From positions 1 through 64,000 of the IMG/VR virus record IMGVR_UViG_3300033553_000842: 64,000 nt of DNA. One strand, written 5' to 3'. This DNA comes from a virus. Under the pieces are notes generated by a model, which was given only the letters and a program-made list of their open reading frames with translations, did not search any database and had not been told where the DNA came from. The number at the start of each line of letters is the position of its first letter. The first letter of the stretch is position 1. This document shows positions 15,635 through 53,136 of the stretch, in pieces. The position numbers and the translations under genes were made by a program.

Positions 15635-15640
15635 TTGTTT

Positions 15641-17643: not shown

Positions 17644-17671
17644 GGCTTAGGTTCCTTTTAGGACTGTGTGA

Positions 17672-17923: not shown

Positions 17924-17970
17924 TGGCCCTTCAACTTAGGAGTTGGCCCTTCAACTTAGGAGTTGGCCCT
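17924..17970. repeat. 20-bp tandem repeat TGGCCCTTCAACTTAGGAGT x2.35
   Basis: Exact tandem copies next to a terminator-like hairpin (17892-17932, minus strand). Confidence 0.85.
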
Positions 17971-18244: not shown

Positions 18245-18319
18245 ACCGTCCTTTTTCCAAGATTAACCATTTTAGATATTCGCGCCATTCGCCCCGATCG
18301 ATCGTGACGAACCCCTCTC

Positions 18320-35100: not shown

Positions 35101-37658
35101 ACAAATCCTTAGACCGAGCCTGGCTGGATTACATCGGCGCGATCAGAGAGAAATCCGACCAGACTTCGAGTTTCCTACAGACCATTGAGCAGCTCAATGC
35201 TCAAGAACTAGCCCAGATAGAGCAGTCCAAGATTGCGGCCGACGGGGGAAATGCTTCGGTCTTTACCCTGCGCGAGGGCGCGAAAGAAATTGCTACGGAC
35301 GTCCGCGCAAAGCTGATGAGTGGGCTGGGGGGGATGAGCGCTCAAGAGCGCACCAAGACCGTGGCCCAGCGGTACGAAGCATTTGATAAGGAAATTGCTG
35401 AAGCCACCCGCAGTCTTGAAAGTCTGAAGTCCAACGGGACCATTCAGTCCACCGAGACCTATGACCTGATCCGTCGAATGCTTCTGGAAGCCTCCGCCTC
35501 TGCCTCGAGCATGTTCCGAGGGATCAAAGAGGAATCTGATAAGGTCGTCGAGAAGCTCACCGATCTAAATCTGCAAGAAACCGAGGTCGAGCTTCAGAAA
35601 CTGGCCGACGAGTTTGGTGAAGCCCAAGGGCTGCAGGCCATTGGTGAAGCTATGGCGGCTCAGAAGATCCAGCTGGAAAAAGTCCGGGCCGCTGAGATCG
35701 CTTCGGTGCAAGCTCAGGGTCTGGACTCTGATGTTGAGGCCGCTACGCTGACCGCCACCAACCGGCAGTATGACGATCGCTCGGCGGGTATCGATGCCGC
35801 GGGACTTGAGAAGATCAATGCTATCCTCGACGCTCAGCGTCAGGTCACGCTTGAGGGTCAGAAGCAGGTCGAGCTTCAGAACCTGATTCTGGAAAAAGGT
35901 CAGAACAGCCTCGAGGTCGAGCAGTTCAAGCTTCAGCAGGAGAAGCTTTCCACCGCCGAAACGCTTCGTAAAGCTGGGGTGGAAGAGGGTTTCGTCCAAG
36001 CCAAGCTTGCAGCCATGCAAACCGAGTTCGATCTCGCCCAGCGGATCAAGGCACAGGAGGCCAACAAGGACCTGAGCCGGCAGATCGAACAGCGCAAGGA
36101 AGAGAACCGGATCGCAAAGGCAACTTTGATATTCGGTGAAGACAGCCTGGTCGTGGTCAAAATGCGTGAGAAGGCTGAGCGGGACGCCTTGGACGTAACC
36201 CTTGAAGCATCTGACGCAAGTGAGGAGCTAAAGGAGCAGCTTCGCAATGCCCTGAAAGAGGCTCAGGCCATTGGTCGAGCAGATATGTCCAGTGGTATCA
36301 ATAACGCAATCGGACGGGCCGGGGCTCTGATCCGGCAGCTGCGTATTGCCCGGAGTGTTTTGTCGACGATCGACAAGAGTAATGCACGGGAAAAAGATCG
36401 CCTTGCAGTTGAAAGAGCAACAGTCGGGGATGCTTCTGCCCGGGAGGTCGGCCTCGCTGGCTTGGAAACTCGATACAAACTTGAGGACGACGGGGTTACG
36501 GACGTCGTCGGCATAGCGGCGGGGGTGGGACTTGCCAAGGCTGACGAAGCCGTCCTGGCGGCAGATCGGCGTAAGCTTGAGGCGGAAGAAGAAGCCTATT
36601 CTGAATCTCAGAAGGACCCGAGCGGCGGCGGCGGCGGTGGCGGCAAGGGTAAGAAAGACAAGAACCCCGAGTATGACGCGCTGCAAACACAGCTTTCCAA
36701 CCGGATCGGGGCCGCGACAATTTCCATCGACAACGGTGGAGATCCTGCAGCGGCGTATCAGCAGATCGAGATGGCTCTCCAGAGGATCAATGTCGAGGTC
36801 GAAAAGCGTGAGCAGCTCATCACGTCGATCGCTGGGAAGCAGTCCCGTAGCGTTCAGGAAGAAGAGCGCCTCAAGCAACTGATCTCTGAGCACAACCAGC
36901 TGACGACCTTCGCCAAGACCGAAGAGGAAAAGATCCTCTGGCTCAAGGAACAGCAGGGGCAGGCCTCAGTCAATCTCAAGGAGATCGTTCGAGAGTGGTC
37001 GCGTGAAGCGCTCGTCGGGGTCGTTGCCCTTGAAGAGGGTATGAAGAACGTCCTCGGCAATCTACTTACTGGTTTCGGAACACTGTTTACCGACCTGGTG
37101 AGTGGCGTGAAATCTGCCAAGGAGGCCTTTCGTGAGTTTGCGGTCTCCGTGGTTAAGAGCCTGTTGCAGGTCATCGCCAAGTTGATCGCGATCAAGATCC
37201 TGAAATCGATCCTCGGGGGTATCGCCGGTGGGGGCGGAAGGTTTGCGGGGTTCGCTCAGAGCGGTTTAGATTTCCTCTCCAATAAAGAAGGCGGGCGGGT
37301 TCAGCGGAAAGTCGGTGGGGGTCGTGTTGAGGGCAACCTGGCCCGGGACAGCGTTCCACATTCTCTGATGCCTGACGAATATGTTTTGCGGGCCTCGGCG
37401 GCACGGGCCATTGGTTACGACAAGCTGAACCAGATCAATGCCACCGGGAATACTTCCCGTATGAATGGTCTGTCAAATGTGAGCACCGATCCTCAAAACA
37501 AAGGGTCGGGTATGGGGGATGTAAATGTCTATGTCATCTCTCCGGATCAGAAACCGATCCCAGGACCACGCGACATTATTGCCGTGATGGATGACCACAT
37601 CTCCAAAGGTGGTTCCACCAAGAAGCTGATTAAATCTGTATCGATGGGAGAAATCTAA
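32190..37658 (+). CDS. Tape measure protein
   Basis: 1822 aa, helical; TP901-type core (FTAVEVANA...LGQAGFS, AMANAGIRSGSTLGTGMR). Confidence 0.95.
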   Translation: MANKKEIIDVRLSAASKKDLMALSKELADAVNSVNKLAKGFQNLSQLKASASAKGAVENNFGLGAYSRGLNQSEKQRATNTARLGTETGRVADERERDLRATQKLMKTQEGLQRIEQARLLNAKAELKTVDRLVDRGELLKKQDLARVKAAEAQLRLNDLLAQRDVRNRAIRKAPAGSDERRALQAQAPAANAQIRGVQQEVQAAERLNTLAGSRLQTLQQETAQKAQQAKFDRESERMQSRSLTSQTSLARDRERRQQAQQLNLTKELEGARRINDLVTAKTQKLRAQDRLRLEEQNGNLTAVRQARVLNDLLDRRIRKLQEANRVAKEAAKPTKEQMAGNAREMSMKRLFGDNGASLFAIQAGLVANYALMNQLRTGFQQAIAFTVDLDSAMRNLQAIVRITDTDLASLKDSLIGISEETKFTAVEVANAAVTLGQAGFSTDEIKDSIRAVSLLATATGTELKNAVDIATSTLGVFNMESSQMADVANILTEAVNTSKLNIEKLTLGLQYSGNIAAQSGVSFKELTSALGAMANAGIRSGSTLGTGMRQILIALQKPSNEFSATLDRLGLTMDDVNLETKGLYGALKNLRDAGFSSGDAIQSFEVRAAAAYNALSGNLDQMLSLQNAFQRTSASIQANETQMKSLANQGKRLGSVLGSVAAAGLDPMLKGTIAITSALADAFSWVRQFENSLAFLTTGVAVAGLSGILVYFGRMIKNLSGMVLGTNALTAANLRATVSYKALSVAMMRSPFALVAGAITAIGAAFYFMGNRTTGAQDKLEKAQTTFDRSVGSAEKLQKGLVRVDDTLKDLTNRYDLLKDGGALLESVIIDIQKQFVDMGRDAGQVGNDVDALIKTMRDLRMELSKEYELRINTSLLNLDNLRNATRKSLSESIAGTASAASEMNPLSASERKSGVLRSNQGGFGSQILDDAKILQTSGSSLNEVGSANARLDAVRLKIEDRLDNDSSANKSLDRAWLDYIGAIREKSDQTSSFLQTIEQLNAQELAQIEQSKIAADGGNASVFTLREGAKEIATDVRAKLMSGLGGMSAQERTKTVAQRYEAFDKEIAEATRSLESLKSNGTIQSTETYDLIRRMLLEASASASSMFRGIKEESDKVVEKLTDLNLQETEVELQKLADEFGEAQGLQAIGEAMAAQKIQLEKVRAAEIASVQAQGLDSDVEAATLTATNRQYDDRSAGIDAAGLEKINAILDAQRQVTLEGQKQVELQNLILEKGQNSLEVEQFKLQQEKLSTAETLRKAGVEEGFVQAKLAAMQTEFDLAQRIKAQEANKDLSRQIEQRKEENRIAKATLIFGEDSLVVVKMREKAERDALDVTLEASDASEELKEQLRNALKEAQAIGRADMSSGINNAIGRAGALIRQLRIARSVLSTIDKSNAREKDRLAVERATVGDASAREVGLAGLETRYKLEDDGVTDVVGIAAGVGLAKADEAVLAADRRKLEAEEEAYSESQKDPSGGGGGGGKGKKDKNPEYDALQTQLSNRIGAATISIDNGGDPAAAYQQIEMALQRINVEVEKREQLITSIAGKQSRSVQEEERLKQLISEHNQLTTFAKTEEEKILWLKEQQGQASVNLKEIVREWSREALVGVVALEEGMKNVLGNLLTGFGTLFTDLVSGVKSAKEAFREFAVSVVKSLLQVIAKLIAIKILKSILGGIAGGGGRFAGFAQSGLDFLSNKEGGRVQRKVGGGRVEGNLARDSVPHSLMPDEYVLRASAARAIGYDKLNQINATGNTSRMNGLSNVSTDPQNKGSGMGDVNVYVISPDQKPIPGPRDIIAVMDDHISKGGSTKKLIKSVSMGEI

Positions 37659-39043: not shown

Positions 39044-39323
39044 AACCACCAACCTGGCCGAAGATCCAAGCAACGAGTTCGAGTTCGATCCGCAGGATCT
39101 AAAGAACGCTTGGGGGACATGGCACACGCATCCCGTGACCTCCTCGAACCTGTCGATACCAGACTACCATTTCTTCAAGTCGTGGGGAAATTTGGTTCAC
39201 TTCATCATTTGTTTAGACGATGTAGCATGCTATACAACAATTGAAGATTACTTGGTGGTTATCAATGAAGCGGACGATTTATCTCCACGGCTATTTGAAG
39301 GACTTACATCCAGAGCCGATTAA
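38937..39323 (+). CDS. JAB/MPN domain tail protein
   Basis: ERCGII, N.A.DP...F, WHTHP...NLS..D. Confidence 0.8.
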   Translation: MLKFSEIQELKTSLIGLWKPSVERCGIITADREIIETTNLAEDPSNEFEFDPQDLKNAWGTWHTHPVTSSNLSIPDYHFFKSWGNLVHFIICLDDVACYTTIEDYLVVINEADDLSPRLFEGLTSRAD

Positions 39324-40512
39324 GGTTGAAGCAACGACGATAGCCGAGGCTCTGCGTGTCCTCGAGCAGATTCCGGAACTCAAACCGGAGCACGGACCTG
39401 GGCACCCTGTCCGCATCGACGGAGTGCTGACCGACATTCAACTGTTCGCTAACAACGACACGTTAGATGAAATCCACATCCGACCTCAGGTTGGGGGCGC
39501 GGGTGGCCGCGGAGGTTTGACCCAGATCCTGCTCGGGGTTGTTCTTATCGGGGTCTCCCTCGCCCTTGGCCCCGCGGGTACTGCTATAATGGGCACTTGG
39601 ATCACCAATTCCACCTTGATGATGGCCGGCGCGGGTCTTGTCCTGGGTGGTCTGCTACAGATGATGCTGCCTAAACCGGAGGCACTTGGGGAGGAAGAGA
39701 AATCCCAGTATCTCCCCCCAACAACCAACACGGTAGCAGTGGGCACTCCAATTCCTATGGTCTTTGGAGCCCGACTGGTCGGGGGCCAAATCCTCTCTCT
39801 GGACAGCGATGCTAAGCTCGTCACTTCAGATACATCCGCGGGGACTCCGTCTGTCCCACAGCTCCCCCAAGGATCTACTGCGGAGGAGACCCGGGCGTAT
39901 CACGCCAGATATGGACTGGGAGAGTTTGCCTCAGGGGCTTGGGGATATGAGACTTTCAAAATCGCTGCCAGCGCTCAAGATACACTCTTCAGGTTAGTAA
40001 TCTCCAACGCTCTCAATATCTCGGCCAGGGGGTACACCCCCACGGTGGAACCTTTTGAGTTGCTGACCCTTTTACGGGGGGCTCAAGGCCCTCGCGGGCT
40101 ACCCATCAAGTATCAAACCAGGTTCACGGTCCCCACCTCTGGGGTATACGCGTTCAAGAACGATAGCACCTACCCGGTCAAGGTCCTCATCGACGGTGTA
40201 GAAGCCGCGACCCATAATCTGACCGCAGGGACTCTCGTGAGTATCGAGGTCGTGGTCCTTTTTGGGTATGAGTTACAGACCGACCAGATCTTCAATTTGC
40301 AGTACCGAATTGCCGCTGGGGCTTGGGCCCCCATCACCAACCTGGTGGGGGCTGGGGATCCGTTCCCGCCCGGAGAAGTGAACGTCCGGGACAGTCTTTT
40401 TGTAGAATATGACAAGACCCCCCTGTCGGACGGACTTAGCCCTATCAGACCAGTGTTCGCCTCTCCGGTCGCCTCCCCCAGCAACGTCCCGACCAGTGAA
40501 TGGAGACCATAA
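39265..40512 (+). CDS. Tail assembly protein (lambda gpI-like) with extra domain
   Basis: Ubiquitin-like N-terminus (IYLHG.L...EAL), GAGG plus hydrophobic stretch, NT..G.PIP.VFG...VGG; PA14-like C-terminal domain. Confidence 0.8.
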   Translation: MKRTIYLHGYLKDLHPEPIKVEATTIAEALRVLEQIPELKPEHGPGHPVRIDGVLTDIQLFANNDTLDEIHIRPQVGGAGGRGGLTQILLGVVLIGVSLALGPAGTAIMGTWITNSTLMMAGAGLVLGGLLQMMLPKPEALGEEEKSQYLPPTTNTVAVGTPIPMVFGARLVGGQILSLDSDAKLVTSDTSAGTPSVPQLPQGSTAEETRAYHARYGLGEFASGAWGYETFKIAASAQDTLFRLVISNALNISARGYTPTVEPFELLTLLRGAQGPRGLPIKYQTRFTVPTSGVYAFKNDSTYPVKVLIDGVEAATHNLTAGTLVSIEVVVLFGYELQTDQIFNLQYRIAAGAWAPITNLVGAGDPFPPGEVNVRDSLFVEYDKTPLSDGLSPIRPVFASPVASPSNVPTSEWRP

Positions 40513-43500
40513 GTGAATAAGGTCTTGCCTAAAGGCGCAGGGGGGGGCCCAAAGCCCCCTACGGTTCACGCCGTCACATACGTCTCTGAGGATATTTTTG
40601 AGATCAACCTAGGCGTTTGCGTGGGTCCAATTGCTGGCCTCTACGCAGGACCTCGTGCGTTCTATCTTGGGGATACGCCCCTGACGTCCCCCACAGGGGA
40701 AAACAACTTCGATCCGTTCGAGCTTCACGTCCACAACGGGGCCGATGTTGCCACCCCGGTGCATAACGCACTTGGAGGAATCTCCTCAAGCGAAAGTGTC
40801 AGCGTCCAGCTGGGCTATCTGACCCCCGTGGTCCGTGAAACTGATGCTGGCCTGCGTAACCAGATTGACGTCCTCGAGATTCGTCTGTTTATTTCCCAAC
40901 TGGTCAACAACACCTCGAGTGGGGATATCCTGAAAACCGACATCTCGGTTGATCTAGAATATCGCGAGAAGGGGACAACCACCTGGCTCCCGTTCATCGG
41001 GGACAACAAAACCTGGACTTACAACGGACGGATCGGGGGGGCGGTCAAAGAGTTCCGCCGGGTGGTCCCACGTATTAACGCCGACTGGGAACTTCGGGTT
41101 ACCAAAAGTCTCGACGACGACACCACAAATGGGGTCTACCGGGATGTTTCCTGGGAGAGTTTCCAGTCTGTCATCCAAGAAGACAAGGCCTACAACAATA
41201 CGGTTATTGTTCGAGGTCTCTCTGCGGCCAGTGACCAGTTGAACTCGGTACCCAACATGGCGGGGGTTTGGCGCGGCTTGATTGTCCAAGTCCCCTCCAA
41301 CTATGATCCTGTAACCCGCTACTACGACGGGGTCTGGGATGGGTCATTCAAACTGGCCTATACCGATAACCCCGTATGGTGTCTCTATTATCTCCTTATG
41401 GATCCGGTGAACGGAGCCAGAGCCTACTTCCCGGGCCTGCAAACGGATCGTTTCAGTTTTTATGAGGCAGCACAGTGGTGTGACGGATTGGTCCCCCGCG
41501 GAAACACAGGCACGTATCAACCTCGGTACACCTACAACGATCTGATCTCTCAGGTACGTCAGGGCCGTCAGACGTTGCAATACCTTGCAGGTCTGTTCGG
41601 TGGGGTAATTGCCGAAGACCTGGCGGGGACAATTATCCTGAAGGTTGACAAGCCGTCGGCCGTCACTCAGATCTTTGGCCCGGAGAGTGTGAGCTCTGAA
41701 GGTTTTTCCTATAGCTACACTGACATTGAAGGCCGGCCTAACCAGAGCAAGGTCCAGTTTACAAACCCAGATCTGCAATGGGACAATGACCAGCGGCTCG
41801 TTGAGATCCAAGAGTACATCGACCGCAACGGCCTGACTGTGGACGACTACACCGCTGTAGGGTGTATCGACGAATACGAAGCCCAGCGGAGGGCTTACCT
41901 ACGTCTTCTTCAGGCCAACACCGAAACCACCATGGTCAGTTTCTCGACCGCACGTCAGGGACTGCTGCTCGAGCCTTATGATGTGATCGGCATTGCCGAC
42001 CCGGCCCAGAACTGGGGTCTGTCTGGTCGTGTGAAATCAGTATCCGGGACCACCATCACGCTGCGGGATGCTCTAACAGTCCCCGCCCAGGTGGGTCTGA
42101 CCCTCCAGGTTCAAACACCAACAGGTATCGAAACCCTGACCGTTCAATCCGCGACGGCCACAACAACCTCTCTCGAGATCACTGTCGGGACCTGGCCTAC
42201 GAACGCCCCCGATCGAGCTCAGTTCAGCCTTGAGGATAACGTCACCTCAACTGGTTTGGTGAAGCCCTTCCGGATTCTGTCGATCGAGCCTAACGAGGAA
42301 GAGTCCTCCCTTGCGAACATCTCAGCGATTGAGGTGAACCCAAACAAGCATTCCGACGCGGACAACCTGACCCTAACCCAGGTGGTGGACTACACGGGGG
42401 TCTCAGCAATCCCCCGGGCCCCTCAAAACATTCGGATCGTTTCTGGCACCTCTGAGTCACTGACACACCAAGATGGTACGATCGAGAACCGGATCCTCGT
42501 AACTTGGGATGCCCCCTCGACCTACAAAATCAGAGTGTACTACCGCCGGGAGGAATCTGACGAGTTCCAGGTAATCACCGCGTCCCAGAACCAAGTTTAC
42601 ATCCCAATGGCCAAGGCTGGGGAGCCCTATCTCATTGAGTTCAGGGGTGAGAATGAGTTCGGGATTCCCTTCCAAAAACTCACCCCGATCCTTCATCAAG
42701 TCACGGGTAAACGGGTTGATCTTCAGACCCCCACGAACTGGGTGGGGATCCCCGGGGTTCGCAGTGTAACCCTCGATGGTCCTGACAGCACCCTAAGAGA
42801 CTTTGCTTATTTCGAAGTCTGGGCGGGTGAAGCAGGGTCTGTATTTGAAAACGCCTCAAAGATTGGCCAGGTAGCAGCCAGCCTCTTTACATATACCCTA
42901 CCCGCAGCTTCTCTGTTTGCGAGGTACTGGGTGTTGGAAGTCGATACCTCCGGCAACCCTTCAGCCCCGTCGAATGCCATAGATGTTTTACCTGAGCCGG
43001 TTAAATCTACCGAGATTGAAGCCGCTGTCACTGAGCAGATCGAGGCTACTAGAGCTAAAGCCGACGCAGTCAGAGCGGACCACGATGCGTTGATCCTCAA
43101 TTTCACCAAGACCAATCTTGGCGAACTTGAGGTGGACTATAACGCAACACAAGCTGCTGCCAATGACGCTCTTGTAGCAGCGACCGCTTCTGAAGCCGAC
43201 AGGCTCCTGGCTGAAGCCGCAGCTAATGTCGCATCCGTATCCGAGACAAACGCAGCGGCTAGCTCTATTTCTGCAAGTGCCTCAGAAGCCTTTGCTCTTG
43301 CTGGAGCTGTCGACGCCACTGATGCAGCAAATGCAGCAAATGCTTCTGAGACAAACGCAGCGGCTAGTGAGACAAACGCAGCGAACAGCTCTATTTCTGC
43401 AAATGCTTCAGAAGCATTTGCCCTTGCTGGCGCTGTAGATGCCACTGATGCCAGCGTTATTGCTGAAAACGCCAAGGTTGAAAGCATCGCAGCGCGAAAT

Positions 43501-45348
43501 CAATCCGAGACATATCAAACAGCGTCCCTCGCAGCGCAGGCTGCATCCGAGCTTGCCCGTAATGAAGCGCAAACACAAGCCACCAGCGCGGCTGGAAGCG
43601 CTACGGCATCCGCAGGTCATGCGCAAACAGCTCAGGCGTCAGAAACTGCATCAGGCTCTAATGCAACCGCTGCACAGGCGGCGCAAGTGTCGGCAGAAGC
43701 AGCTCGCGATCAATCGTCGAATACTGCAACCGCATCTTCCGCAAGCGCAGCCGCAGCCGCTGCGTCTGAAACCGCAGCGGGGTCTAGTGCAGCCGCGACC
43801 GCTCTGGATCGACAGGCAGCTCAGACGGCCCGCGCAGGAGCTGAAACAGCCGAGACAAATGCTGCAACCAGTGAAACAAACGCAAGTGGATCGGCTGCTA
43901 CCGCGACGACCGAAGCCAACAATGCGGCAACATCAGAGACCAACGCGGGGGCTAGCGCAACTGCTGCCGCAGGTTCTGCTTCAACCGCTTCCACAAAGGC
44001 GACAGAGGCTGGCCAGGACGCCACAGCCGCCAACGCCGCAAAGCTGGCAGCTCAGACGGCCCGCGCAGGAGCCGAAACAGCAGAATCTAACGCCGCAACC
44101 AGCGAGACAAGCGCGGCAGGGTCCGCCGCAAGCGCCAGCAGCAGTGCAACAAATGCTGCAACCAGTGAGAATAACGCAGGCTCTAGTGCAACAGCGGCAG
44201 CGTCCAGCGCCTCTCTGGCCTCTACAAAGGCTACTGAATCCTCTCAATCGGCCACAGCCGCCAACACTGCAAAGCTGAACGCGGAAACAGCCCGCGCAGG
44301 AGCTGAAACAGCCGAGACAAATGCAGCAACCAGCGAGACAAGTGCGGCAGGGTCTGCGGCAACAGCTAGCACGTCCGCGAGCAACTCCGCCGCCAGTGAG
44401 ACCGCGGCGGGTGGTCACGCCACTGCCGCGGCTACGAGTGCGTCGGTGGCGACGACCAAAGCAGGTGAAGCTTCACAGAGCGCGACGACCGCAACAACCC
44501 AGGCTAACACTGCGACAACCAAAGCAGGAGAGGCCTCCACATCAGCCACGAATGCAGCGACTTCTGAAACAGGAGCAAATAATTCTGCTGCTTCGGCACT
44601 GATCTCCGAGAATGCTGCGGCCACCAGTGAAACTGCATCTGGTATTCAAGCCACAGCGTCTGCAAACAGTGCAGGCGTTGCGACAACAAAAGCGACAGAA
44701 GCCGCTCAATCGGCTTCCGCTGCTGACGTAAGCAAGACGGCCGCAGAAACTGCAAAATCAAATGCGGAGTCTTCTGAAACTGCCGCTGCACTAAGTGCTT
44801 CCAATGCTTCTGGATCAGAGGCAGCCGCAGGCACATCTGAGACAAATGCTGCTGCCTCCGAAACTGCATCAGGAAGCAGCGCCACTGCGGCTGCATCGAG
44901 CGCCTCACTGGCGTCAACCAAGGCGACAGAGGCTGGCCAGGACGCCACGGCGGCGAACGCGTCAAGATTGGCTGCTGAGACAGCCGAGTCAAACGCCAGC
45001 GTGTCCGAAGCCAGTGCTGCGCAAAGCTCAACCGACGCAACCGGCTCAGCCTCCAGTGCACAGACTTCCAGCGTTCTGTCCTCTGTGACCTTTGATGAAA
45101 GCCTGAAGGCTGCGCGTGAGGGAACCAGAGCCGGAATGGCAACTGTTTCAGGAGCCGGCAATGGCCAGTTTCAGCAAGGCTGGACCGGCTGGATCACAAT
45201 CACCGGTCTGACGACCAACTTTTCCAACAGAACCGAGATCGAGACAGGCGTTCTGTTTGGTGACGATGGCGCGACCATCGCCTCCATCGATCTTAACCTT
45301 GAACTTACACAAATCGTCCGAGCGGGCGAAGGGGATATAGTAGTATGA
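40513..45348 (+). CDS. Tail tip / central fibre protein J-like, N-terminal part
   Basis: GPI.GL, VPSNYDP.TR.Y.G.WDG.FK.AYTDNP.W, PRYT.N, FN3-like domains, then Ala/Ser/Thr heptad repeats. Confidence 0.9.
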   Translation: MNKVLPKGAGGGPKPPTVHAVTYVSEDIFEINLGVCVGPIAGLYAGPRAFYLGDTPLTSPTGENNFDPFELHVHNGADVATPVHNALGGISSSESVSVQLGYLTPVVRETDAGLRNQIDVLEIRLFISQLVNNTSSGDILKTDISVDLEYREKGTTTWLPFIGDNKTWTYNGRIGGAVKEFRRVVPRINADWELRVTKSLDDDTTNGVYRDVSWESFQSVIQEDKAYNNTVIVRGLSAASDQLNSVPNMAGVWRGLIVQVPSNYDPVTRYYDGVWDGSFKLAYTDNPVWCLYYLLMDPVNGARAYFPGLQTDRFSFYEAAQWCDGLVPRGNTGTYQPRYTYNDLISQVRQGRQTLQYLAGLFGGVIAEDLAGTIILKVDKPSAVTQIFGPESVSSEGFSYSYTDIEGRPNQSKVQFTNPDLQWDNDQRLVEIQEYIDRNGLTVDDYTAVGCIDEYEAQRRAYLRLLQANTETTMVSFSTARQGLLLEPYDVIGIADPAQNWGLSGRVKSVSGTTITLRDALTVPAQVGLTLQVQTPTGIETLTVQSATATTTSLEITVGTWPTNAPDRAQFSLEDNVTSTGLVKPFRILSIEPNEEESSLANISAIEVNPNKHSDADNLTLTQVVDYTGVSAIPRAPQNIRIVSGTSESLTHQDGTIENRILVTWDAPSTYKIRVYYRREESDEFQVITASQNQVYIPMAKAGEPYLIEFRGENEFGIPFQKLTPILHQVTGKRVDLQTPTNWVGIPGVRSVTLDGPDSTLRDFAYFEVWAGEAGSVFENASKIGQVAASLFTYTLPAASLFARYWVLEVDTSGNPSAPSNAIDVLPEPVKSTEIEAAVTEQIEATRAKADAVRADHDALILNFTKTNLGELEVDYNATQAAANDALVAATASEADRLLAEAAANVASVSETNAAASSISASASEAFALAGAVDATDAANAANASETNAAASETNAANSSISANASEAFALAGAVDATDASVIAENAKVESIAARNQSETYQTASLAAQAASELARNEAQTQATSAAGSATASAGHAQTAQASETASGSNATAAQAAQVSAEAARDQSSNTATASSASAAAAAASETAAGSSAAATALDRQAAQTARAGAETAETNAATSETNASGSAATATTEANNAATSETNAGASATAAAGSASTASTKATEAGQDATAANAAKLAAQTARAGAETAESNAATSETSAAGSAASASSSATNAATSENNAGSSATAAASSASLASTKATESSQSATAANTAKLNAETARAGAETAETNAATSETSAAGSAATASTSASNSAASETAAGGHATAAATSASVATTKAGEASQSATTATTQANTATTKAGEASTSATNAATSETGANNSAASALISENAAATSETASGIQATASANSAGVATTKATEAAQSASAADVSKTAAETAKSNAESSETAAALSASNASGSEAAAGTSETNAAASETASGSSATAAASSASLASTKATEAGQDATAANASRLAAETAESNASVSEASAAQSSTDATGSASSAQTSSVLSSVTFDESLKAAREGTRAGMATVSGAGNGQFQQGWTGWITITGLTTNFSNRTEIETGVLFGDDGATIASIDLNLELTQIVRAGEGDIVV
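43140..45080 (+). repeat. Ala/Ser/Thr heptad repeat tract (77-aa / 231-bp higher-order unit)
   Basis: CAGACGGCCCGCGCAGG recurs at 43822 and 44053. Confidence 0.85.
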
Positions 45349-46979
45349 GCAACATCAATTCAGCCCTCGTAAAAGCCGCAGTCGATGCTCTTACGTCCAA
45401 GGTAAACGGCGTCATCGCCACAGCCACAGACAGCGTATCAGCCGCCGCCCTGGCGCTTGGCTACCGTGACACGACGCTGGCCTACAAAAACCAGGCTGAC
45501 GCAGCAGCCGCTCTGGCACTGCAGTACAAGAACGACGTTGCCAGTGCGATTGTATATCAGGACTTGTCTTCGATCGCCCTGTCGAAAGGCATCACCGCAA
45601 CCGCCATGTGCATCGACACATCGCCAAACCCGCCGCTGTCAGTGCAGCGGGCGACAAGCTGGTTTGCTGAGTTGGGGCCAATGCCCGCGACAAAGGTGGT
45701 GCTTGTTACCGTGTTTTCGGTCACGATTTATGACGGTGATGATCCGTCCCATCCTGTGTGGGCGACGTTTAATAGCGGCGTTTCAAAAATGCTTTTTAGA
45801 GGTGATTTTAGCTGCGTTTCTCTTGAAAATGGAATTCTCTCTGTAGGGTCTAACAACACAAACGGCGGCGTAAGCGTAGTTGACTTTTCACAGGATATGC
45901 GCACCCTTTATTACGGCGCAGAGACTTATGTATTCAATGGCAACATATCTGAAAGAAACATTGACAAAGGGCAGACCTTAAAAACAGCGACGGGTGGGAT
46001 TGTAAACCGAGTAATCAACGCAGTCGCAATGCACGTCTACGATGACGCACCTGTTGATCCTGTATCCGGTCTGCAAATCCCGACGATTGCTGTTGGTACG
46101 GCTGGCGGTGTGAGCGTTATTCTGGATGATGGGACTGTTGTTGATAGTGGTAGCACTTTCCCTGCTGACAACATTATTGTGACGGAACAAGGTCTCTGGT
46201 GGACAGCATCGGGAATAACTTTGCATTTTGCAACGTGGTCTGACATTGAGGCGGGCGATGGTTTTGGTGATGTAATCGCTCATATTTTTGGTGGTAGTGG
46301 ACTGTTTCGGCAGCAAACCCGTTTCGATCGTTTGATTAACCTTGGCTCTAATCAGCTTGCATGGACATCGGCAGCTTCATATTCCAATACAGTACGGGGT
46401 TTGCAGAAGCGTTTGCTTAACTACGCTGACCAGACCAAAGGCATGTCGGCTCTTATCACATCCTCCTACAACACAGGCTGGATGGTCGGAGACATCAAAG
46501 GAGCATTCCTTTCCAGCACGGACACGGCGAGTTTGGTTGCGAGTGAACAGGTCACGAATGGTACGTTTGATGTTGACCTGTCGGGGTGGACGCAAACAGG
46601 CAATAACGCAAATAATTTTTGGGAATTTAGCGCCGGAAAAGCCCGCGTGGTTTCTGACGGTGGTTTTACACCACTGCAGCAGACAACCAGTTTGGTTGTT
46701 GGCAAAAGGTACTGTCTGACCGTTGATGTCACAAAAACCGCAGGCTCGGTTAAAGTAGGTACAAATTCTACTGTCGATAATATTTCATCTTCCCTTGCTG
46801 CCGGAGCTAACAGCATCTTTTTTACGGCCAGTGCAACAACACTATACTTTTCGCGGGTTCCAGGTGTCGTCGATTGCACCATCGACAACGTATCCCTCAA
46901 ACTAGCCGACGCTGACCGCTCAGTGAACGCCAACGGCCTAATCGTCAACGGCACAATCACGCGTACACCGGTGGCTTGA
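45345..46979 (+). CDS. Tail fibre / receptor-binding protein, N-terminal part
   Basis: Coiled N-terminus, TIYD.DD...P.W..F, PTIAV.T.GGVSVI..DGTVVD, YNTGWM.GDIKGAFLS, CBM-like NGTFD; ends TITRTPVA. Confidence 0.8.
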   Translation: MSNINSALVKAAVDALTSKVNGVIATATDSVSAAALALGYRDTTLAYKNQADAAAALALQYKNDVASAIVYQDLSSIALSKGITATAMCIDTSPNPPLSVQRATSWFAELGPMPATKVVLVTVFSVTIYDGDDPSHPVWATFNSGVSKMLFRGDFSCVSLENGILSVGSNNTNGGVSVVDFSQDMRTLYYGAETYVFNGNISERNIDKGQTLKTATGGIVNRVINAVAMHVYDDAPVDPVSGLQIPTIAVGTAGGVSVILDDGTVVDSGSTFPADNIIVTEQGLWWTASGITLHFATWSDIEAGDGFGDVIAHIFGGSGLFRQQTRFDRLINLGSNQLAWTSAASYSNTVRGLQKRLLNYADQTKGMSALITSSYNTGWMVGDIKGAFLSSTDTASLVASEQVTNGTFDVDLSGWTQTGNNANNFWEFSAGKARVVSDGGFTPLQQTTSLVVGKRYCLTVDVTKTAGSVKVGTNSTVDNISSSLAAGANSIFFTASATTLYFSRVPGVVDCTIDNVSLKLADADRSVNANGLIVNGTITRTPVA

Positions 46980-46981
46980 TT

Positions 46982-47671
46982 ATGAAACGTCAATATAAAC
47001 GCATGACCAAAGAGGACGAAGATTTCATTGTGGCAAACGACGCCACCATGTCTATCAGCCAGATGTGCGAGGCTCTTGGGAGAGCCAAGGGAACTGTCGA
47101 TAAGGCTCGTAGACGCCTCGGTCTGAGGAAAGACTTTCACACCCCTTGGACTGATGCAGAAGCTGCTGTCGTTAAGGCCAATCCAACGATGGGAAACTCT
47201 GAAATAGCGGCCCTACTCGAAGGACGCACTGCTAACAATGTCAGCAGTTGGCGCTATCACAATGGTCTACGAATGGAGCGATCCTGTGCAAAATGCGGAT
47301 GCGAGTATTTTCATAAATCTAGTGCCTCTAAATTGTGTGGTGAGTGTTGGGTTTCGGGGGCATTGCCCAATAGCGCAAATCCTCTTGTTCGCTTTGGGTA
47401 CTATCGTGATGGAGCTAAAAGCCGAGCCATCGAGTTCGACCTGAGCGAACAAGAGTTCTTCTCGTTTTGGGGTAAGTCCTGCACCTACTGCGGAGCAGAT
47501 ATTGAGGGCATTGGGCTAGACCGTATTGACTCAAAGACAGGGTACAAGATGAGCAACGTCACGCCATGTTGCGGAAGATGTAATGAAATGAAGATGGCAG
47601 ATACCGTTGACCAATGGAAAGCGCAGATGACCCGCATCTTATCACATATGGAGAAAAACAATGACTGCTGA
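46982..47671 (+). CDS. HNH-type homing endonuclease
   Basis: Two HTH repeats, CAKC/CGEC, and C.YCG...GLDRIDS..GY..SNV.PCC..CN.MK. Confidence 0.85.
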   Translation: MKRQYKRMTKEDEDFIVANDATMSISQMCEALGRAKGTVDKARRRLGLRKDFHTPWTDAEAAVVKANPTMGNSEIAALLEGRTANNVSSWRYHNGLRMERSCAKCGCEYFHKSSASKLCGECWVSGALPNSANPLVRFGYYRDGAKSRAIEFDLSEQEFFSFWGKSCTYCGADIEGIGLDRIDSKTGYKMSNVTPCCGRCNEMKMADTVDQWKAQMTRILSHMEKNNDC

Positions 47672-48395
47672 ACTTGTCGCCTATTCGGGGTTCTCTGCAA
47701 CCAACTATCTCGAACAACCGTACAACCCTGACCTTGATTTCGGCACAGGTGATTTCTGTGTGATGGGGTGGGCAACGGCATCTGCCGCCTCTGATTGGCT
47801 TCTTGATCGGAAGACGCCTGGAGACAATGCCAGCGTGGGGTTTGACTTGTATCAGTCTGATGGGGATACCAACGGCGGTAATTTGAGATTTGGCACAAGG
47901 AGTAGTATTGGCGGTACTCTTACCACCACAGACGTAGGTGAGGTGACTTCAAAGTTTACCTATTTCGCAGTTGCTCGAAAAGGTGGTGTCGTTTCAACCT
48001 ACATTAACGGGACTATTACTGGGTCAAATACAAACACCACTGATTTGACAAACATCTCGGCTAATACATTTATCGGCCTTCGTTCTAATTTGAGCGCTCA
48101 ATATCTCAATGGCTCACTCGCCCTCATACGCATCGGCGCAACAGCCCCAAGCCCTGACCAAATCCGCAAAATCTACAATGACGAGAAAGCCCTGTTCCAA
48201 CCCAACGCCGCTTGTACCTTGTTCGGCACATCGGACGCGGTGACAGCACTGGCCCATGACGAAATCACAGGGCTGGATCACGCGGGTACATCGGCTGGAC
48301 GGTCTGACTTCTCTGGCTTGATCCGAGTGGGCAACACTACCACGCCCGTCACAACGGCAATCGCCGCAAACAATTCTCTGATACTGGAACAGTAA
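47661..48395 (+). CDS. Tail fibre C-terminal part (LamG/concanavalin-like)
   Basis: AELVAYSGFS..NYLEQPYN.DLDFGTGDF; GSLALIRI.ATAPS..QI.KIYNDEK.LFQ; own GGAG RBS. Confidence 0.8.
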   Translation: MTAELVAYSGFSATNYLEQPYNPDLDFGTGDFCVMGWATASAASDWLLDRKTPGDNASVGFDLYQSDGDTNGGNLRFGTRSSIGGTLTTTDVGEVTSKFTYFAVARKGGVVSTYINGTITGSNTNTTDLTNISANTFIGLRSNLSAQYLNGSLALIRIGATAPSPDQIRKIYNDEKALFQPNAACTLFGTSDAVTALAHDEITGLDHAGTSAGRSDFSGLIRVGNTTTPVTTAIAANNSLILEQ

Positions 48396-48396
48396 C

Positions 48397-49047
48397 ATGA
48401 CCGTAAGAATAGCAAAACCGGCGATTAACCTGCGTGAAGAACTGGTCAGGCTGAGAACCCTGCCAACGTATCGTGAGGAAGAGTTTTATTTCGACAGCTT
48501 GGTCGAGAATGGGACTTTTGACAGCGATACTATTTGGACACTAACGGGGGGTTCAATAACGGGTGGAGAATATGTCGGACCCGCCTCTGGTGCTCAAGGT
48601 GTCCAACAGAATAGCAAAACGCCCCTTGGGACGAAAAGGTACAAGGTGCAGTTTGACGCCAGTGTTGCAGCGTCTGTAACCACCGTGTTTTTACGCCTTG
48701 GGTCTAATACTAATGTTTTAGATTGGACGGTTGGCACCACCCCAACAACTTTCAGCGGGGTTGCTACGGCTGGCGGGGTTAGTGAACTGATTTATCTTCT
48801 TTCTGGTGGTGCCAACACCCTGCGGCTAGACAATATCACACTCTTCGAGGTCGATGCCAACGGCGACGTAATCCACACAATGAAGCAAGGCTGGTTGCCC
48901 AAATACTTTTTCGAAGACGGGCTTAAAATCCGTGAAGGTGTGGCGCATGACTATGAAGCCTATACGGACGGTTTCAGGTGGTTCGTCAAGCCAAGCGTGA
49001 CACCCGGCGCGTTGACAGAAACCTGCATCATTGGAGTGAAAGCATGA
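48397..49047 (+). CDS. Fibre-associated protein with CBM-like domain
   Basis: MTVRI.KPAINLRE.L..L start; NGTFDSD..W. Confidence 0.65.
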   Translation: MTVRIAKPAINLREELVRLRTLPTYREEEFYFDSLVENGTFDSDTIWTLTGGSITGGEYVGPASGAQGVQQNSKTPLGTKRYKVQFDASVAASVTTVFLRLGSNTNVLDWTVGTTPTTFSGVATAGGVSELIYLLSGGANTLRLDNITLFEVDANGDVIHTMKQGWLPKYFFEDGLKIREGVAHDYEAYTDGFRWFVKPSVTPGALTETCIIGVKA

Positions 49048-49592
49048 ATATCCTGAACCTGAAACTCGGTGATGCGCCCAAGACCGCCGCAACAATCGAG
49101 AAGGCCAAGGCCCGGTACATGAACGCAATGGGTTGGACAGCGACAAAGCGTGACGACGCCATGAATGAAGGGGCATTCCTTTTGACAGGGTACATCCAGA
49201 CAGCGCCAATGTTTGACAAAGCGATGGTGGACCTATCGCGGTTCGAACTTGATCTGGCTGAGACGTACCAGATCAACGCCTTCAATGCGCAGCTTGCCGC
49301 ATATCGTGCTGCCAAGACACGTCTTGGACGGCATGTCCTTGCAGATGGTCAGCTTGAGGTCATAGAGGAGTTTGACCCTGAGACGGGTGAACCACTCACG
49401 GAACCCGTTGTCGTACAGCAAGCCATCGAACCCTTGGACGCAACTGTGGTCATCACCGAATATGACGAAGAAGGTGCGGCCATGGATTTCACGGTGGCGA
49501 ACCCGCTGATCGCAATCGACGAGGCTCAACGTGACCATGCCCAATCTGTGATCGACGCGACCCCTGAAGGAGTGATCGCGTATGCCACTTGA
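49044..49592 (+). CDS. Fibre-associated protein / chaperone
   Basis: FN.QL.AYR.A..RL..H.LADG...IEPL..TV...NPLI..DEA.R..AQ.VIDATP. Confidence 0.6.
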   Translation: MNILNLKLGDAPKTAATIEKAKARYMNAMGWTATKRDDAMNEGAFLLTGYIQTAPMFDKAMVDLSRFELDLAETYQINAFNAQLAAYRAAKTRLGRHVLADGQLEVIEEFDPETGEPLTEPVVVQQAIEPLDATVVITEYDEEGAAMDFTVANPLIAIDEAQRDHAQSVIDATPEGVIAYAT

Positions 49593-52350
49593 TTACACTG
49601 GGGTAGGAGCTGCACAGTTTGATGAACCGGCCACACTGGTCTGGGGTTCGTCCTTGCCTGTTCTGCCCGACACTGTGCTTCAGCTCACTCTGAGTGTCGC
49701 GAAGGTCAACGGGGCAAACGCCAGCATTGTCGCTGGACTGATCTGCTATGACGAGACCGGCAATGACGTCGGTCAACTCCTGACCATCTCTGAGACCGTA
49801 AGCAGCGCAGACTGGCAAGAGTTTGTCCAGAGCTTCTCCGGCTGGCCCGCAGGTACAGTTTCGGTGCTGCAAGTGTTCCAGCATCAAACATCTGGCAGCA
49901 CGATCCAGGTCGATGAGTTTTCCTATGAAGACGTGACGGCAGTGGTTGCCGCTGAAGCCGCCGTGATCTCGGCCCAGACAGCGACAACAAAAGCGACCGA
50001 AGCCGGGACGTCAGCCACGGCGGCTCAAAGCGAACGCGTTCTGGCTGAGACTGCCAGGTCGGGTGCAGAAACCGCAGAGACAAATGCCGCGGCATCTGAA
50101 ACCAGTGCTTCTGGATCTTCCGCAGCCGCCTCGACCAGCGCCTCAAACGCAGCCAACAGCGCCACCCAGTCGGGCAACTCTGCAACGGCGGCAGCAAGTT
50201 CAGCCTCAACTGCTTCTACAAAGGCCACAGAGGCATCACAGGACGCCACAGCGGCGGCGTCAGAGCGCCTTGCAGCCGAGACTGCTCGATCTGGTGCAGA
50301 GAGCGCGGAGACGGGCGCTGTCACAGCAAAGAACACCTCAGAGAGCGCAGCGGCGACCGCCACTAGTAAAGCGACACTGGCCGCTCAAAGCGAAACCAAT
50401 GCGGGAAACTCAGCTACCGCCGCAGCAGGAAGTGCATCTACAGCAACAACCAAGGCCACAGAGGCATCACAGTCAGCTTCCACGGCCACAACGCAAGCCA
50501 ACACGGCGACAACAAAGGCCGGAGAGGCGTCAACCTCTGCCAGCCAAGCAGCGACGTCAGCCACTAACGCTGATGGGTCCGCTTCCTCAGCCTCGACAAG
50601 CGTGACAAACGCGGCCAACAGTGAAACAGCAGCAGGTAACTCCGCCAGCGCTGCGGCGACCGATGCGTTCACTGCAACAACCAAAGCAGGCGAAGCATCA
50701 ACCAGTGCAACTGCGGCCAACGCGGCTAAACTAGCTGCGCAGACGGCTCAATCTAATGCGGAAACCGCTGAAACGAATGCCGCAACGAGTGAGACAAACG
50801 CCAGTGGGTCTGCCTCCTCAGCCTCAACCAGTGCAACAAACGCGGCCAACAGCAACACGGCCGCGGGCAACTCAGCCACAGCCGCTGCTAATTCAGCCTC
50901 AACTGCAACAACCAAAGCGAGCGAAGCCGGTACATCTGCTACATCAGCGTCCACGTCAGCCAACACCGCGTCGACCAAAGCCGCTGAAGCTTCCACATCT
51001 GAGACAAACGCAGCGACCAGCGCCACGTCGGCTTCTGGATCTTCAGCTGCGGCCATCTCTGCCAAAGACACCGCTGTTGCTGTCGCCTCTCAAGGTGGAG
51101 GCGTTCTGTCTGACATGACGTTGCCCTACGGGGCAGGAAAATGGGGTGCCTATTCTACAGGCCCAACACTTACCGCGAGTGAAATTTACCCCACAGGCAA
51201 TACCTGGACTTGGAACCTGGCGGCAAACGCCAGTGGTGGGGCAGTAATTTCGCAAATCAGTCCGCTCTGGACAGGTGTTAAATTTGCCGACGGTTTTCGT
51301 GTCGAAGTAACCTACAAGTTGATCTCTGGTACATTGCAAGGCGCAGGTGTCCTGCTCGATTTCTATCCCGCAACCGGAAGTCACCAGAGGGTTCAGAAGT
51401 CTCTCGAAGAGATGACCCCTGGAACGGTAATCACTGGCGCTGTCATGCAGGCCAGTGCTGTGTTTGATAAACCCGCAGGCATCACCACGTCGGGCGGTGT
51501 CGGGGTCTATTTCATGGCCAGCGCGTCGCTCTTCGGTGCACAGGACGCCAAGAACATCAAGATTTACAGCATCCAGGTCTATCCGATTTCGGTCACTGAG
51601 GCGTCTGTCAAAGAACAGGCATCAACTATTGTCGATCTTCAGGGGAACGCGTCCGCTGGGTACCTGATCAAAGCGCAAGCCGGTTCAGAGGTGTCGCTTC
51701 TGGATCTGATCGCAGCTGATGGCGCTGCGGGGGCTGTTTCGGTGGCCAAGATCAGCGCCACAAGCATCCTGCTGGATGGTACAGTCACAGCCGATCATAT
51801 CAACGTGACGTCACTAGACGCAATCTCAGCCAATTTGGGAACCATCCAAGTAGGTAGCGCGAATATAGCCGACGCGGCGATCACCAATGCCAAGATCGGT
51901 GATACGATCCAATCTAACGACTTCGTAGCTGGATCAGCTGGCTGGCGTATTCTGAAAACTGGCTCTGCTGAGTTTAACGGTGTCGTTATTTCCCGTGATC
52001 AGGTCGTTGGCTCAGGCACTGCCTCCATCCCAACTACACAATGTTCCCAGCAGGGCTTTTTCACAAATGATGGCGTGTTTTGGATCGACACAGGTCTATC
52101 AACTTCGGCATGGACCGGTAGCGATGCAAGTTACAGCGCCGCTGTTGGACGTAATGGAAGTAACGGAACAATATTTAACACCAACAATGCCACCACTACG
52201 GAGCGACAGTGGGGATGGGCTGCGGAGGTAATCCCCATCACAAGATGGACCGGGGGAGCGACGTTGTTTATAAAGGTTGAGCTTTGGACAAAAAACGTAA
52301 GCGCAGCTTCAGGTTTCATACTTGATTGGAAGGTTAAGAAGGTAACATGA
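49582..52350 (+). CDS. J-like central fibre, C-terminal part
   Basis: CBM-like start, the same A/S/T repeats, then a lambda-J-type C-terminus (I.A....LDG, LDAISANLG, I.DAAITNAKIG..IQS.DF..GS.GW.I.K.G.AEFN). Confidence 0.8.
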   Translation: MPLDYTGVGAAQFDEPATLVWGSSLPVLPDTVLQLTLSVAKVNGANASIVAGLICYDETGNDVGQLLTISETVSSADWQEFVQSFSGWPAGTVSVLQVFQHQTSGSTIQVDEFSYEDVTAVVAAEAAVISAQTATTKATEAGTSATAAQSERVLAETARSGAETAETNAAASETSASGSSAAASTSASNAANSATQSGNSATAAASSASTASTKATEASQDATAAASERLAAETARSGAESAETGAVTAKNTSESAAATATSKATLAAQSETNAGNSATAAAGSASTATTKATEASQSASTATTQANTATTKAGEASTSASQAATSATNADGSASSASTSVTNAANSETAAGNSASAAATDAFTATTKAGEASTSATAANAAKLAAQTAQSNAETAETNAATSETNASGSASSASTSATNAANSNTAAGNSATAAANSASTATTKASEAGTSATSASTSANTASTKAAEASTSETNAATSATSASGSSAAAISAKDTAVAVASQGGGVLSDMTLPYGAGKWGAYSTGPTLTASEIYPTGNTWTWNLAANASGGAVISQISPLWTGVKFADGFRVEVTYKLISGTLQGAGVLLDFYPATGSHQRVQKSLEEMTPGTVITGAVMQASAVFDKPAGITTSGGVGVYFMASASLFGAQDAKNIKIYSIQVYPISVTEASVKEQASTIVDLQGNASAGYLIKAQAGSEVSLLDLIAADGAAGAVSVAKISATSILLDGTVTADHINVTSLDAISANLGTIQVGSANIADAAITNAKIGDTIQSNDFVAGSAGWRILKTGSAEFNGVVISRDQVVGSGTASIPTTQCSQQGFFTNDGVFWIDTGLSTSAWTGSDASYSAAVGRNGSNGTIFNTNNATTTERQWGWAAEVIPITRWTGGATLFIKVELWTKNVSAASGFILDWKVKKVT

Positions 52351-52736
52351 TTTCTTATTTCATCAGAGAAGACGGTGAAGTCGTCAAAGTTGTGGATCAA
52401 GATAATGGACTATCTGCCATGGAAAGTTGGGCCATCGACAACACGGACTATGATCTCGTTAAACCTGAAGCAGACGCGTACCTTGCCCGCCCCTTGTCAC
52501 CGGAGCCATCAGGCTCTGGTGCGACATGGTCTGTTGCTGCCTGCCCAGATGGAACCATCATTGCAGTATGGGACTCGGTTACACACGAAGAGCTGACAAC
52601 ATATACAACTGGTCCGGACGAAACCGTACCACTAAATTTCGTAGACGCAGGAACATACACTGTTCGCGTTCAAAGTCCCGCCCCTGCGCGTGAAGTGCGC
52701 AAACGCCTTGAGGTGACAGATGCAGATCTCGCGTAA
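52347..52736 (+). CDS. Hypothetical tail-associated protein
   Basis: ATGA-coupled to the fibre gene. Confidence 0.6.
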   Translation: MISYFIREDGEVVKVVDQDNGLSAMESWAIDNTDYDLVKPEADAYLARPLSPEPSGSGATWSVAACPDGTIIAVWDSVTHEELTTYTTGPDETVPLNFVDAGTYTVRVQSPAPAREVRKRLEVTDADLA

Positions 52737-53136
52737 CCCCGCCGTCTTAGCTGCCAAACTGGAGGCAGATCGCTCAGAGATTGCCGCAGCAATTACCGCC
52801 GAAAGAGATCGTCGAATTGCCGCAGGCTTCACTCACAACGGGGTGAATTACGATTTTGACGAGGCTTCTAAAAGTCGTATCACTGGCGCTGCAACTCTCG
52901 CGGGCTTCGCTCTGAGTAGTGGAGCCCTCGCAGGCGATCTGCTCTGGCATGGCGGCACTCAACCGTTCGTCTGGGTGGCTGCTGATAATTCTCTGGTCTC
53001 TATGGACGCGCAGACCTGCTTTGCTTTCGGACAAGCCGCCGCAGCGCATGAAACGCGGCATATCTTCTGGGCGAGGGCATTAAAGGACGCAGACCCGATC
53101 CCTGAAGACTTCACCAATGACATCCATTGGCAGTAA
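52720..53136 (+). CDS. DUF4376-like tail fibre assembly protein
   Basis: I.AERDRRI..GF...G..YD.D..S..RI.G...W..ADNS.V.MDA...LK. Confidence 0.75.
   Translation: MQISRNPAVLAAKLEADRSEIAAAITAERDRRIAAGFTHNGVNYDFDEASKSRITGAATLAGFALSSGALAGDLLWHGGTQPFVWVAADNSLVSMDAQTCFAFGQAAAAHETRHIFWARALKDADPIPEDFTNDIHWQ

Follow-up and report, generated by a model that had tools for sequence, protein, structure and literature searches.

A J-type tail fibre encoded in two pieces in a provirus with a lambda-like tail module, with a candidate split-domain joint

Introduction

The distal fibre sets the host range of siphophages and F-type tailocins. In single-chain J proteins, such as lambda gpJ, gp24 (PDB 23gd) and the J protein of Rhodovulum phage P1 (vB_RhkS_P1), the hub and the distal module form one polypeptide. 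The functions of J are spread over several genes in T5 (pb3, pb4 and pb5), and a similar division is proposed for F-type pyocins in a structural study (PMC13455828), which also describes their J homologue as a long three-stranded helical shaft carrying side fibres. Another kind of divided gene is nrdA of Aeromonas phage Aeh1, which, as described in PMC3045599, is split by mobE, its product being reassembled through new terminal tails. Here we analyze a 64,000-nucleotide stretch of viral DNA (positions 1 to 64,000 of IMG/VR record IMGVR_UViG_3300033553_000842; hereafter the window), which is part of a 73-kb provirus record and contains a lambda-like tail module. In this module the parts of a J protein are encoded by two open reading frames (ORFs) located 4.2 kb apart, designated J-N (P0001) and J-C (P0002). 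We propose that the two products probably join, and tentatively suggest that they do so by completing a shared beta-sandwich domain.

Results and discussion

Two ORFs encode the hub and the distal module of a J-type protein

The N-terminal part of J-N consists of a hub and an FNIII-A domain homologous to those of gpJ. It matched PF24801 (E 1.5e-12; 48.2 bits, cutoff 27), phrog_31 (E 4.7e-132), lambda J (8iyk_J residues 20-648; E 3.7e-50) and the F2-pyocin fibre (25vf_A residues 27-812; E 7.7e-58), and PyoF10 is the closest solved relative of this hub. The J hub query retrieved no useful relative from the viral and genome collections. The Ala/Ser/Thr-rich region that follows is presumed to be an alpha-helical shaft, by analogy with the F-pyocin shaft (PMC13455828); residues 1127-1332 match the L-shaped tail fibre of T5 (8hqz_d 34-231; E 1.5e-4). 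J-N stops at residue 1611, 63 residues after the start of the motif GNGQFQQGWTGW (residues 1549-1560). The hub, the central straight fibre and the distal module are thus not united in one polypeptide, and the module is encoded by the ORF starting at position 49582.

This second ORF, J-C, begins with a short sandwich domain resembling carbohydrate-binding modules (CBMs) and then resumes the Ala-rich repeats. Its residues 115-311 match the same T5 fibre (8hqz_d 25-228; E 1.1e-6), and residues 133-456 share 65% protein identity with the repeat zone of J-N. The DNA identity of the two repeat zones, found in short segments, is just 69-76%, which argues against a recent duplication. Near its C-terminus, J-C carries the fibre module of single-chain J proteins: residues 743-812 match residues 1048-1117 of the 1148-aa J-like gp24 (23gd_D; E 3.5e-9), residues 728-826 share 51% identity with residues 1614-1712 of the 1845-aa J of Rhodovulum phage P1, and the 1042-aa J of JenK1 also matches the module. 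The C-terminus of lambda J itself was absent among the PDB matches of J-C. The same gp24 chain matches the J-N hub at 55-654. Since hub and distal module form one chain in gp24 and in P1 J, what is a single polypeptide elsewhere is encoded here by two ORFs. The distal domain of J-C is presumed from its position to be the receptor-binding end.

Both ORFs are long and intact. The stop codon of J-N overlaps the start of the next gene (ATGA), the J-C ATG is preceded by a GAAGGAG motif, and the start of J-C overlaps the end of the preceding ORF by 11 nt. The region 44900-50100 showed no differences (0) from two Logan contigs, which possibly represent the source sample, and a megablast search of positions 44000-51000 against phages gave no match. 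These features agree with the initial annotation, made from the sequence alone, which had described a 1611-aa J devoid of its C-terminal module and, five ORFs further on, an intact gene with its own ribosome-binding site that opens with the remainder of a CBM-like fold, resumes the same repeats and carries the J C-terminus.

The break lies within a CBM-like sandwich

The N-domain of J-C (residues 1-124, in an alignment of 11 rows) was modelled as an eight-stranded sandwich (pLDDT 88.9), in which residues 1-10 are of low confidence. The model has the fold of CBM4-2, CBM22 and CBM16 (Foldseek E 1e-5 to 5e-4; VIA Z 9.4-10.4); for CBM modules together with the central fibre gp20 of Mycobacteriophage Douge (8zdp), Z ranged from 9.4 to 11.0 and rmsd from 2.2 to 3.6 over 105-118 residues. 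Residues 4 to 118 of the model align with residues 47 to 167 of CBM4-2 (2y64_A; Z 10.2), and corresponding alignments were obtained with CBM22 (4xuo_A 36 to 159; 1dyo_A 34 to 157) and CBM16 (2zew_B 30 to 146; 3oeb_A 27 to 144). Only the C-terminal ~115-120 residues of every listed stand-alone CBM are covered, the first ~26-46 being without a counterpart in the N-domain. A transitive mapping gave the same offset: residues 27-115 of the N-domain correspond to 366-457 of P0012, a canonical CBM repeat protein, whose residues 351-437 correspond to positions 43-129 of PF02018, this last match (E 7e-4) being below the cutoff. The N-domain thus has the beta-sandwich fold of CBM4/16/22, and no sequence match to PF02018 was found.

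The N-terminus is the most conserved part of the fibre family to which J-C belongs. The peptide MPLDYTGVGAA with which J-C starts is nearly invariant in the family, and eight of the 15 invariant columns of the N-domain fall within its first 16 residues.

The 63-residue tail of J-N, which opens with GNGQFQQGWTGW, shows on reading by eye of the printed sequences the GN..F..GW.GW motif of canonical CBM-like domains. Two further hubs and the 1341-aa protein P0013 share a conserved version of its residues 1549-1585. An imperfect direct repeat (45128-45174) is located where the Ala-rich region of J-N passes into the tail; it may be a recombination scar or a product of chance.

P0013 contains both pieces in one chain. 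Local BLASTP placed J-N 1497-1584 on P0013 392-470, and J-C 4-251 and 305-740 on P0013 472-719 and 584-989, respectively, while the tail of a Paracoccus hub (P0017 675-732) matched P0013 424-480. By these alignments the end of J-N and J-C map to adjacent, colinear parts of a single protein, and the two pieces are contiguous in the homologue (392-470 and 472-989). P0013 has nothing that corresponds to residues 1585-1611 of J-N or to the first three of J-C. A homologue with both halves in one ORF, as asked for in the initial annotation, exists, although P0013 is a fibre protein and not a J.

An exhaustive phmmer search with J-C 1-124 gave matches in 12 further proteins at E<=0.001. Nine of them (P0004-P0011 and P0014; 394-647 aa) open with the domain, which begins at their residue 1 or 2. 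In P0013 it is internal, at 472-589, and P0012 gave a weak match. The match of the repeat protein P0015 was regarded as spurious.

The same break occurs in other loci

The sole other locus found to contain a gene with the N-domain is a prophage in a Paracoccus metagenome-assembled genome (MAG), designated L011. Its 752-aa hub P0017 (phrog_5616 and phrog_31; PF13550-type) terminates 67 residues beyond the start of GNWDFRDGWTGW. A single gene intervenes, a spike-like 753-aa ORF without a family match that overlaps the end of the hub gene, and the following gene encodes a 394-aa fibre beginning with MTLVYSGRGAA. Outside the tail the J-N and P0017 hubs barely align, the best BLASTP segment being exactly the tail (43% identity over 37 residues, 686-722 of P0017; E 2e-6). 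The same tail also terminates a third hub, P0023 (730 aa; PF13550). In L011 the fibre gene is followed directly by an ORF of 2486 aa (11221-18681), to which no PHROG family could be assigned at E<=1e-5.

In both of the two readable contexts, the window and L011, 63-67 residues separate the start of GN..F..GWTGW from the end of the upstream hub, and the fibre begins with M-x-L-x-Y-[TS]-G-x-G-A-A. The pieces thus co-occur and are conserved as a pair in 2/2 contexts, a small sample. Judged from these comparisons, the break is old and conserved, and portable across two hub families.

Searches for further cases covered viral, genome and metagenome contigs. The N-domain query and pattern gave nothing in the viral contigs, the N-domain pattern gave nothing in the metagenome contigs and only L011 in the genome contigs, and the DNA pattern of the tail gave only the contig of L011. 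Word-based searches with the J-N tail returned the query itself only, and those with the P0017 tail one protein, P0023. Among 401 genomes of the family of the Paracoccus MAG, 20 match the fibre profile; the N-domain was matched in that MAG only, and the other 19 match only model positions 136-481.

Covalent forms of related fibres were also found. In L038, one ORF of 1098 aa comprises a hub (52% identity to the Paracoccus hub) joined to a fibre part, without the tail or the N-domain, and the fibre part is similar to the family member P0006 (34% identity; E 1e-32). L038 and P0006 thus represent one distal module used in a covalent and in a two-piece form. The C-terminal part of this fibre is rich in glycine runs; it is fused to the hub in L038 (9959-13255) and stands behind a stand-alone N-domain in P0006. 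The hub of L039 carries another C-terminus, and P0011 showed no significant similarity to the C-terminus of a Tabrizicola hub. A 1336-aa ORF in G003, considered as an equivalent of P0013, proved to be an ordinary single-chain hub protein. In the J protein of Rhodovulum phage P1 (L009 1159-6696), a CBM-like stretch was seen by eye between two helical segments (residues ~1140-1290), an arrangement resembling the architecture of the split joint; hhalign of the N-domain profile against P1 J showed no relation to the N-domain family (probability 0.4%).

A candidate split-domain joint

We propose that the central tail fibre is built of two polypeptides. J-N would contribute the tail-tip hub, a long Ala-rich shaft and the 63-residue tail. 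J-C would start with the short CBM-like sandwich and continue through another Ala-rich shaft and a beta domain to the J C-terminal fibre module and the distal domain. Together, the tail and the N-domain would correspond to a single CBM4_9-type sandwich, which the related fibre protein has in unbroken form, and the tail would supply the missing N-terminal strands post-translationally, forming a non-covalent joint. The features present only in the split form, i.e. the 26-residue extension of J-N and the near-invariant N-terminal peptide of J-C, may clasp this joint; alternatively, the extension could serve as the docking site of the side fibre whose gene directly follows J-N. The joint would also mark a slot for additional fibre or spike genes, occupied here by a side-fibre gene cut by an HNH-like gene and by two small ORFs.

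That the J-N and J-C pieces associate at all is probable. It is possible, and we put it forward tentatively, that they do so by fold complementation. A broader reading is held with still more caution: the tail/N-domain pair may be a portable split-domain connector, in which the tails of three hubs donate the first CBM-like strands to a separately encoded fibre, so that phages with unrelated hubs could take up different distal fibres and attach additional side fibres at one common node. The joint is described as portable because it is present on two different hub families. The modular fibre system, split through a domain, that the initial annotation had envisaged is supported by homology and fold, and a J gene in pieces is supported by the colinearity in P0013 and by a break inside a CBM-like sandwich.

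Several observations weigh against completion of a shared fold, or narrow its basis. The N-domain models confidently by itself and may thus, as far as a predicted structure can tell, be a complete small domain. Independent folding had been named in the initial annotation as evidence against a split fold; it is observed in silico, yet the model is shorter than canonical modules. Neither the tails nor the N-domains, those of J-N and J-C among them, matched any Pfam family at E<=10, PF02018 included, and a hidden Markov model of the tail found nothing significant in ten proteins holding canonical CBM-like domains. The description of the tail motif as the usual start of a CBM-like fold comes from the reading of canonical domains by eye and has no support from these profile comparisons. 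With MAFFT, the tail motif can be aligned with the start of J-C as well, and the two may, on an alternative reading of this alignment, be paralogous first strands. In an AF2 model of the fused P0013 segment, the 42 extra N-terminal residues were left unplaced (pLDDT <50; one covering sequence). The continuous homologue, as noted above, is not itself a J protein, only two genomic contexts could be examined, and the patterns of the tail and the N-domain were found in no further context across the three collections. Complex prediction with the alignments of the J-N tail and the J-C N-domain gave a score of 0.01, which counts neither for nor against binding.

The pieces might alternatively form no joint. 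J-N would then be a complete central fibre terminating in a small knob, on the pattern of the J homologue of F-type pyocins, J-C and the proteins of the cassette would be independent side fibres attached elsewhere, e.g. to the helical shaft, and the link through P0013 would reflect module shuffling by recombination inside a common domain. PyoF10 offers a model for such an arrangement, as three side-fibre trimers sit on its alpha-helical shaft and a separate gene is believed to encode its receptor-binding part (PMC13455828); the long Ala-rich regions in both J-N and J-C also fit it. Against this, three hubs from two families carry the tail, ending at the same point, while the hubs themselves have diverged almost beyond detection by BLAST, tail and fibre occur together in both contexts, the N-terminal peptide of the fibre is nearly invariant, and the J-C module stands at the distal end of single-chain J proteins. 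We therefore consider independent fibres rather unlikely.

A joint could also exist without completion of a fold. In that case the N-domain would be complete, and the J-N tail would bind to it as a separate adaptor, in the form of a peptide, an edge strand or a small domain. The confident eight-stranded model of the N-domain alone, the unplaced extra residues of the fused form and the lack of significant profile similarity between the tail and canonical CBM starts all favour such an adaptor, and the evidence from fusion and co-occurrence fits it equally well. It remains unlikely in our view, as every stand-alone CBM4/16/22 structure listed is longer by 26-46 residues at the N-terminus and the tail opens with what by eye is the motif of canonical domains.

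If the joint is of the kind we propose, a self-contained connector of ~63 + 120 residues used on different hubs would explain the natural exchange of fibres, and through it fibres could be engineered with the hub gene left unchanged.

Gene layout of the tail module

The coordinates of the features are given in Table 1. The five ORFs between J-N and J-C extend from 45345-46979 through 46976/46982-47671, 47661-48395 and 48397-49047 to 48978/49047-49592. Upstream of J-N, the gpI-like ORF encodes 423 aa, and phrog_32 covers only residues 9-191, leaving ~230 C-terminal residues unexplained.

Table 1. Features of the tail module in the window
Feature	Position	Strand	Description
Tape measure gene	32190-37658		
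gpI-like gene	39241-40512		phrog_32; small tip genes precede the ORF at 40513 in the same module
J-N (P0001), 1611 aa	40513..45348	+	J-type tail-tip hub and FNIII domains, long Ala/Ser/Thr-rich region, C-terminal tail
Ala/Ser/Thr-rich repeat region of J-N, residues ~835-1548	43015..45156	+	From sequence; boundaries approximate
Imperfect 23-bp x2 direct repeat	45128..45174	+	84% matches, score 62
J-N tail, residues 1549-1611 (63 residues)	45157..45345	+	Opens with GNGQFQQGWTGW
C-terminal extension of J-N tail, residues 1586-1611 (26 residues)	45268..45345	+	No counterpart in P0013
P0003, 544 aa	45345..46979	+	N-terminal half of side-fibre-type protein, ending in CBM-like domain
P0019, 230 aa	46982..47671 (alternative start TTG 46976)	+	HNH/endonuclease VII-like, free-standing
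P0020, 244 aa	47661..48395	+	Laminin_G_3 (PF13385, E 2.7e-11); C-terminal half of same side-fibre protein
P0021, 216 aa	48397..49047	+	No family match; NGTFDSD...W motif by eye
P0022, ~181 aa from ATG 49047	49047..49592	+	Acidic, no family match
J-C (P0002), 922 aa	49582-52350	+	
J-C N-domain, residues 1-118	49582..49935	+	Short CBM4/16/22-like sandwich
J-C Ala/Ser/Thr-rich repeat region, residues 119-505	49936..51096	+	
J-C middle beta-rich domain, residues 506-668	51097..51585	+	Colinear with P0013 and P0005
J C-terminal fibre module, residues 669-840	51586..52101	+	
Distal C-terminal domain of J-C, residues 841-922 and stop codon	52102..52350	+	Assigned by position
Two small ORFs	52347..53136	+	Syntenic with two genes after single-chain J of Rhodovulum phage P1 (E 3e-8, E 9e-5)

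A side-fibre gene split by an HNH-like gene

Within the cassette, a second gene is divided. Residues 7-543 of P0003 share 36% identity with part of an 842-aa ORF in the viral contig L005, while residues 3-244 of P0020 share 54% identity with residues 603-842 of the same ORF (E 5e-78). In a three-way alignment, P0003 and P0020 abut within ~3 residues of the linker. The ORFs starting at 45345 and 47661 are, judged by these alignments, clearly a gene in pieces, with the HNH-like gene located exactly at the inter-domain linker. The arrangement comprises a single ORF in a relative, an endonuclease-like gene between the parts and intact halves.

The intervening protein P0019 matched three PHROG families, annotated as endonuclease, HNH endonuclease and endonuclease VII (phrog_3322, E 7e-12; phrog_3118, E 3e-11; phrog_1035, E 5e-11), and its C-terminal half matched RefSeq genes of unrelated phages annotated as HNH endonuclease; a search of P0019 against Pfam gave no HNH match. 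P0020 begins with a start codon located within the 3' end of this endonuclease-like gene. CBM_4_9 is present on 12% of the members of the viral cluster of P0003. P0003 and P0016 have 11 of 23 N-terminal residues in common, which is not significant (E 0.6), and no similarity was detected between P0021 and the ORF that follows the fibre gene in L005.

The cassette is not supported as the cause of the break in J

The third codon position GC content (GC3) of the four consecutive ORFs at 45345-49047 is 0.51-0.52, compared with 0.59-0.66 in the conserved tail genes. The ORF starting at 49047 and the N-domain of J-C have resident-like values (0.60-0.61). This suggests that the 45345-49047 block was acquired separately from the ORF at 49047 and J-C.

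The initial annotation had attributed the break in J to insertion of the 4.2-kb cassette. The same break is found in Paracoccus with a hub of another family and a different intervening gene, the tail is present on P0023, and most of the proteins with the N-domain (9/12) start with it at residue 1 or 2. With different intervening DNA in Paracoccus and foreign GC3 confined to 45345-49047, a split made by the cassette is not supported. The HNH-like gene is situated 1.6 kb from the end of J-N, inside another gene and not at the J break, and no endonuclease-like ORF was identified between the pieces in the Paracoccus locus.

A recent disruption of J by the cassette, followed by decay that left one or both halves non-functional, might be suspected from the lower GC3 of the block and the presence of an endonuclease gene. 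This explanation is largely refuted and very improbable: the break recurs in orphan proteins and in a second prophage, where different DNA intervenes; J-N and J-C are long ORFs without damage; the DNA identity of the repeat zones, 69-76%, speaks against a recent duplication; and the endonuclease gene interrupts the side-fibre gene rather than J. Rejoining of the halves at the RNA or protein level through an intron, an intein or translational bypass, for which no evidence was found, can be practically dismissed, as positions 44500-50200 matched no Rfam family at E<=1, introns included, except for a chance-level sRNA, Pfam scans of J-N and J-C revealed no intein or Hint family, and the interval holds five intact ORFs with coupled starts. 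Between J-N and J-C there was no terminator-like site on the + strand, and the counts of such sites do not exceed those in shuffled sequences.

Comparison with known systems

A split-sandwich fibre joint in phage tails was not found described in the open-access literature searched. The individual components have recognizable relatives. J-N resembles the hub of single-chain J proteins (lambda gpJ, gp24 and Rhodovulum P1 J), and the distal part of gp24 and P1 J resembles the module of J-C; the locus differs from them in that the tail/N-domain pair stands at the break between its two ORFs. The N-domain shares its fold with CBM4, CBM16 and CBM22 modules and with gp20 of phage Douge, from which it differs in lacking the first 26-46 residues and a PF02018 match.

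In F-type pyocins the side fibres attach via OB domains and stem helices to a kink of the shaft, and the sections of that study consulted here (PMC13455828) describe no split sandwich at the junction. The nrdA/mobE arrangement of phage Aeh1, as described in PMC3045599, is similar to the ORFs at 45345 and 47661 in that an endonuclease gene lies between intact halves that form one ORF in a relative, and J-N/J-C resemble the Aeh1 NrdA protein in having terminal sequences present only in the split form. Unlike in nrdA, the target here is a structural fibre gene, the side-fibre halves have almost no new tails, and no endonuclease gene is located at the J break. The split side-fibre gene provides a clean structural example, which extends genes in pieces beyond enzymes.

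In chaperone-usher pili, the incomplete sandwich of one subunit is completed by a strand of its neighbour (donor-strand complementation). The joint proposed here would work by a similar mechanism, although the fold and the system differ and the likeness is one of analogy only. Multi-gene central fibres and endonuclease-split genes both have precedents, and neither point overturns the known picture.

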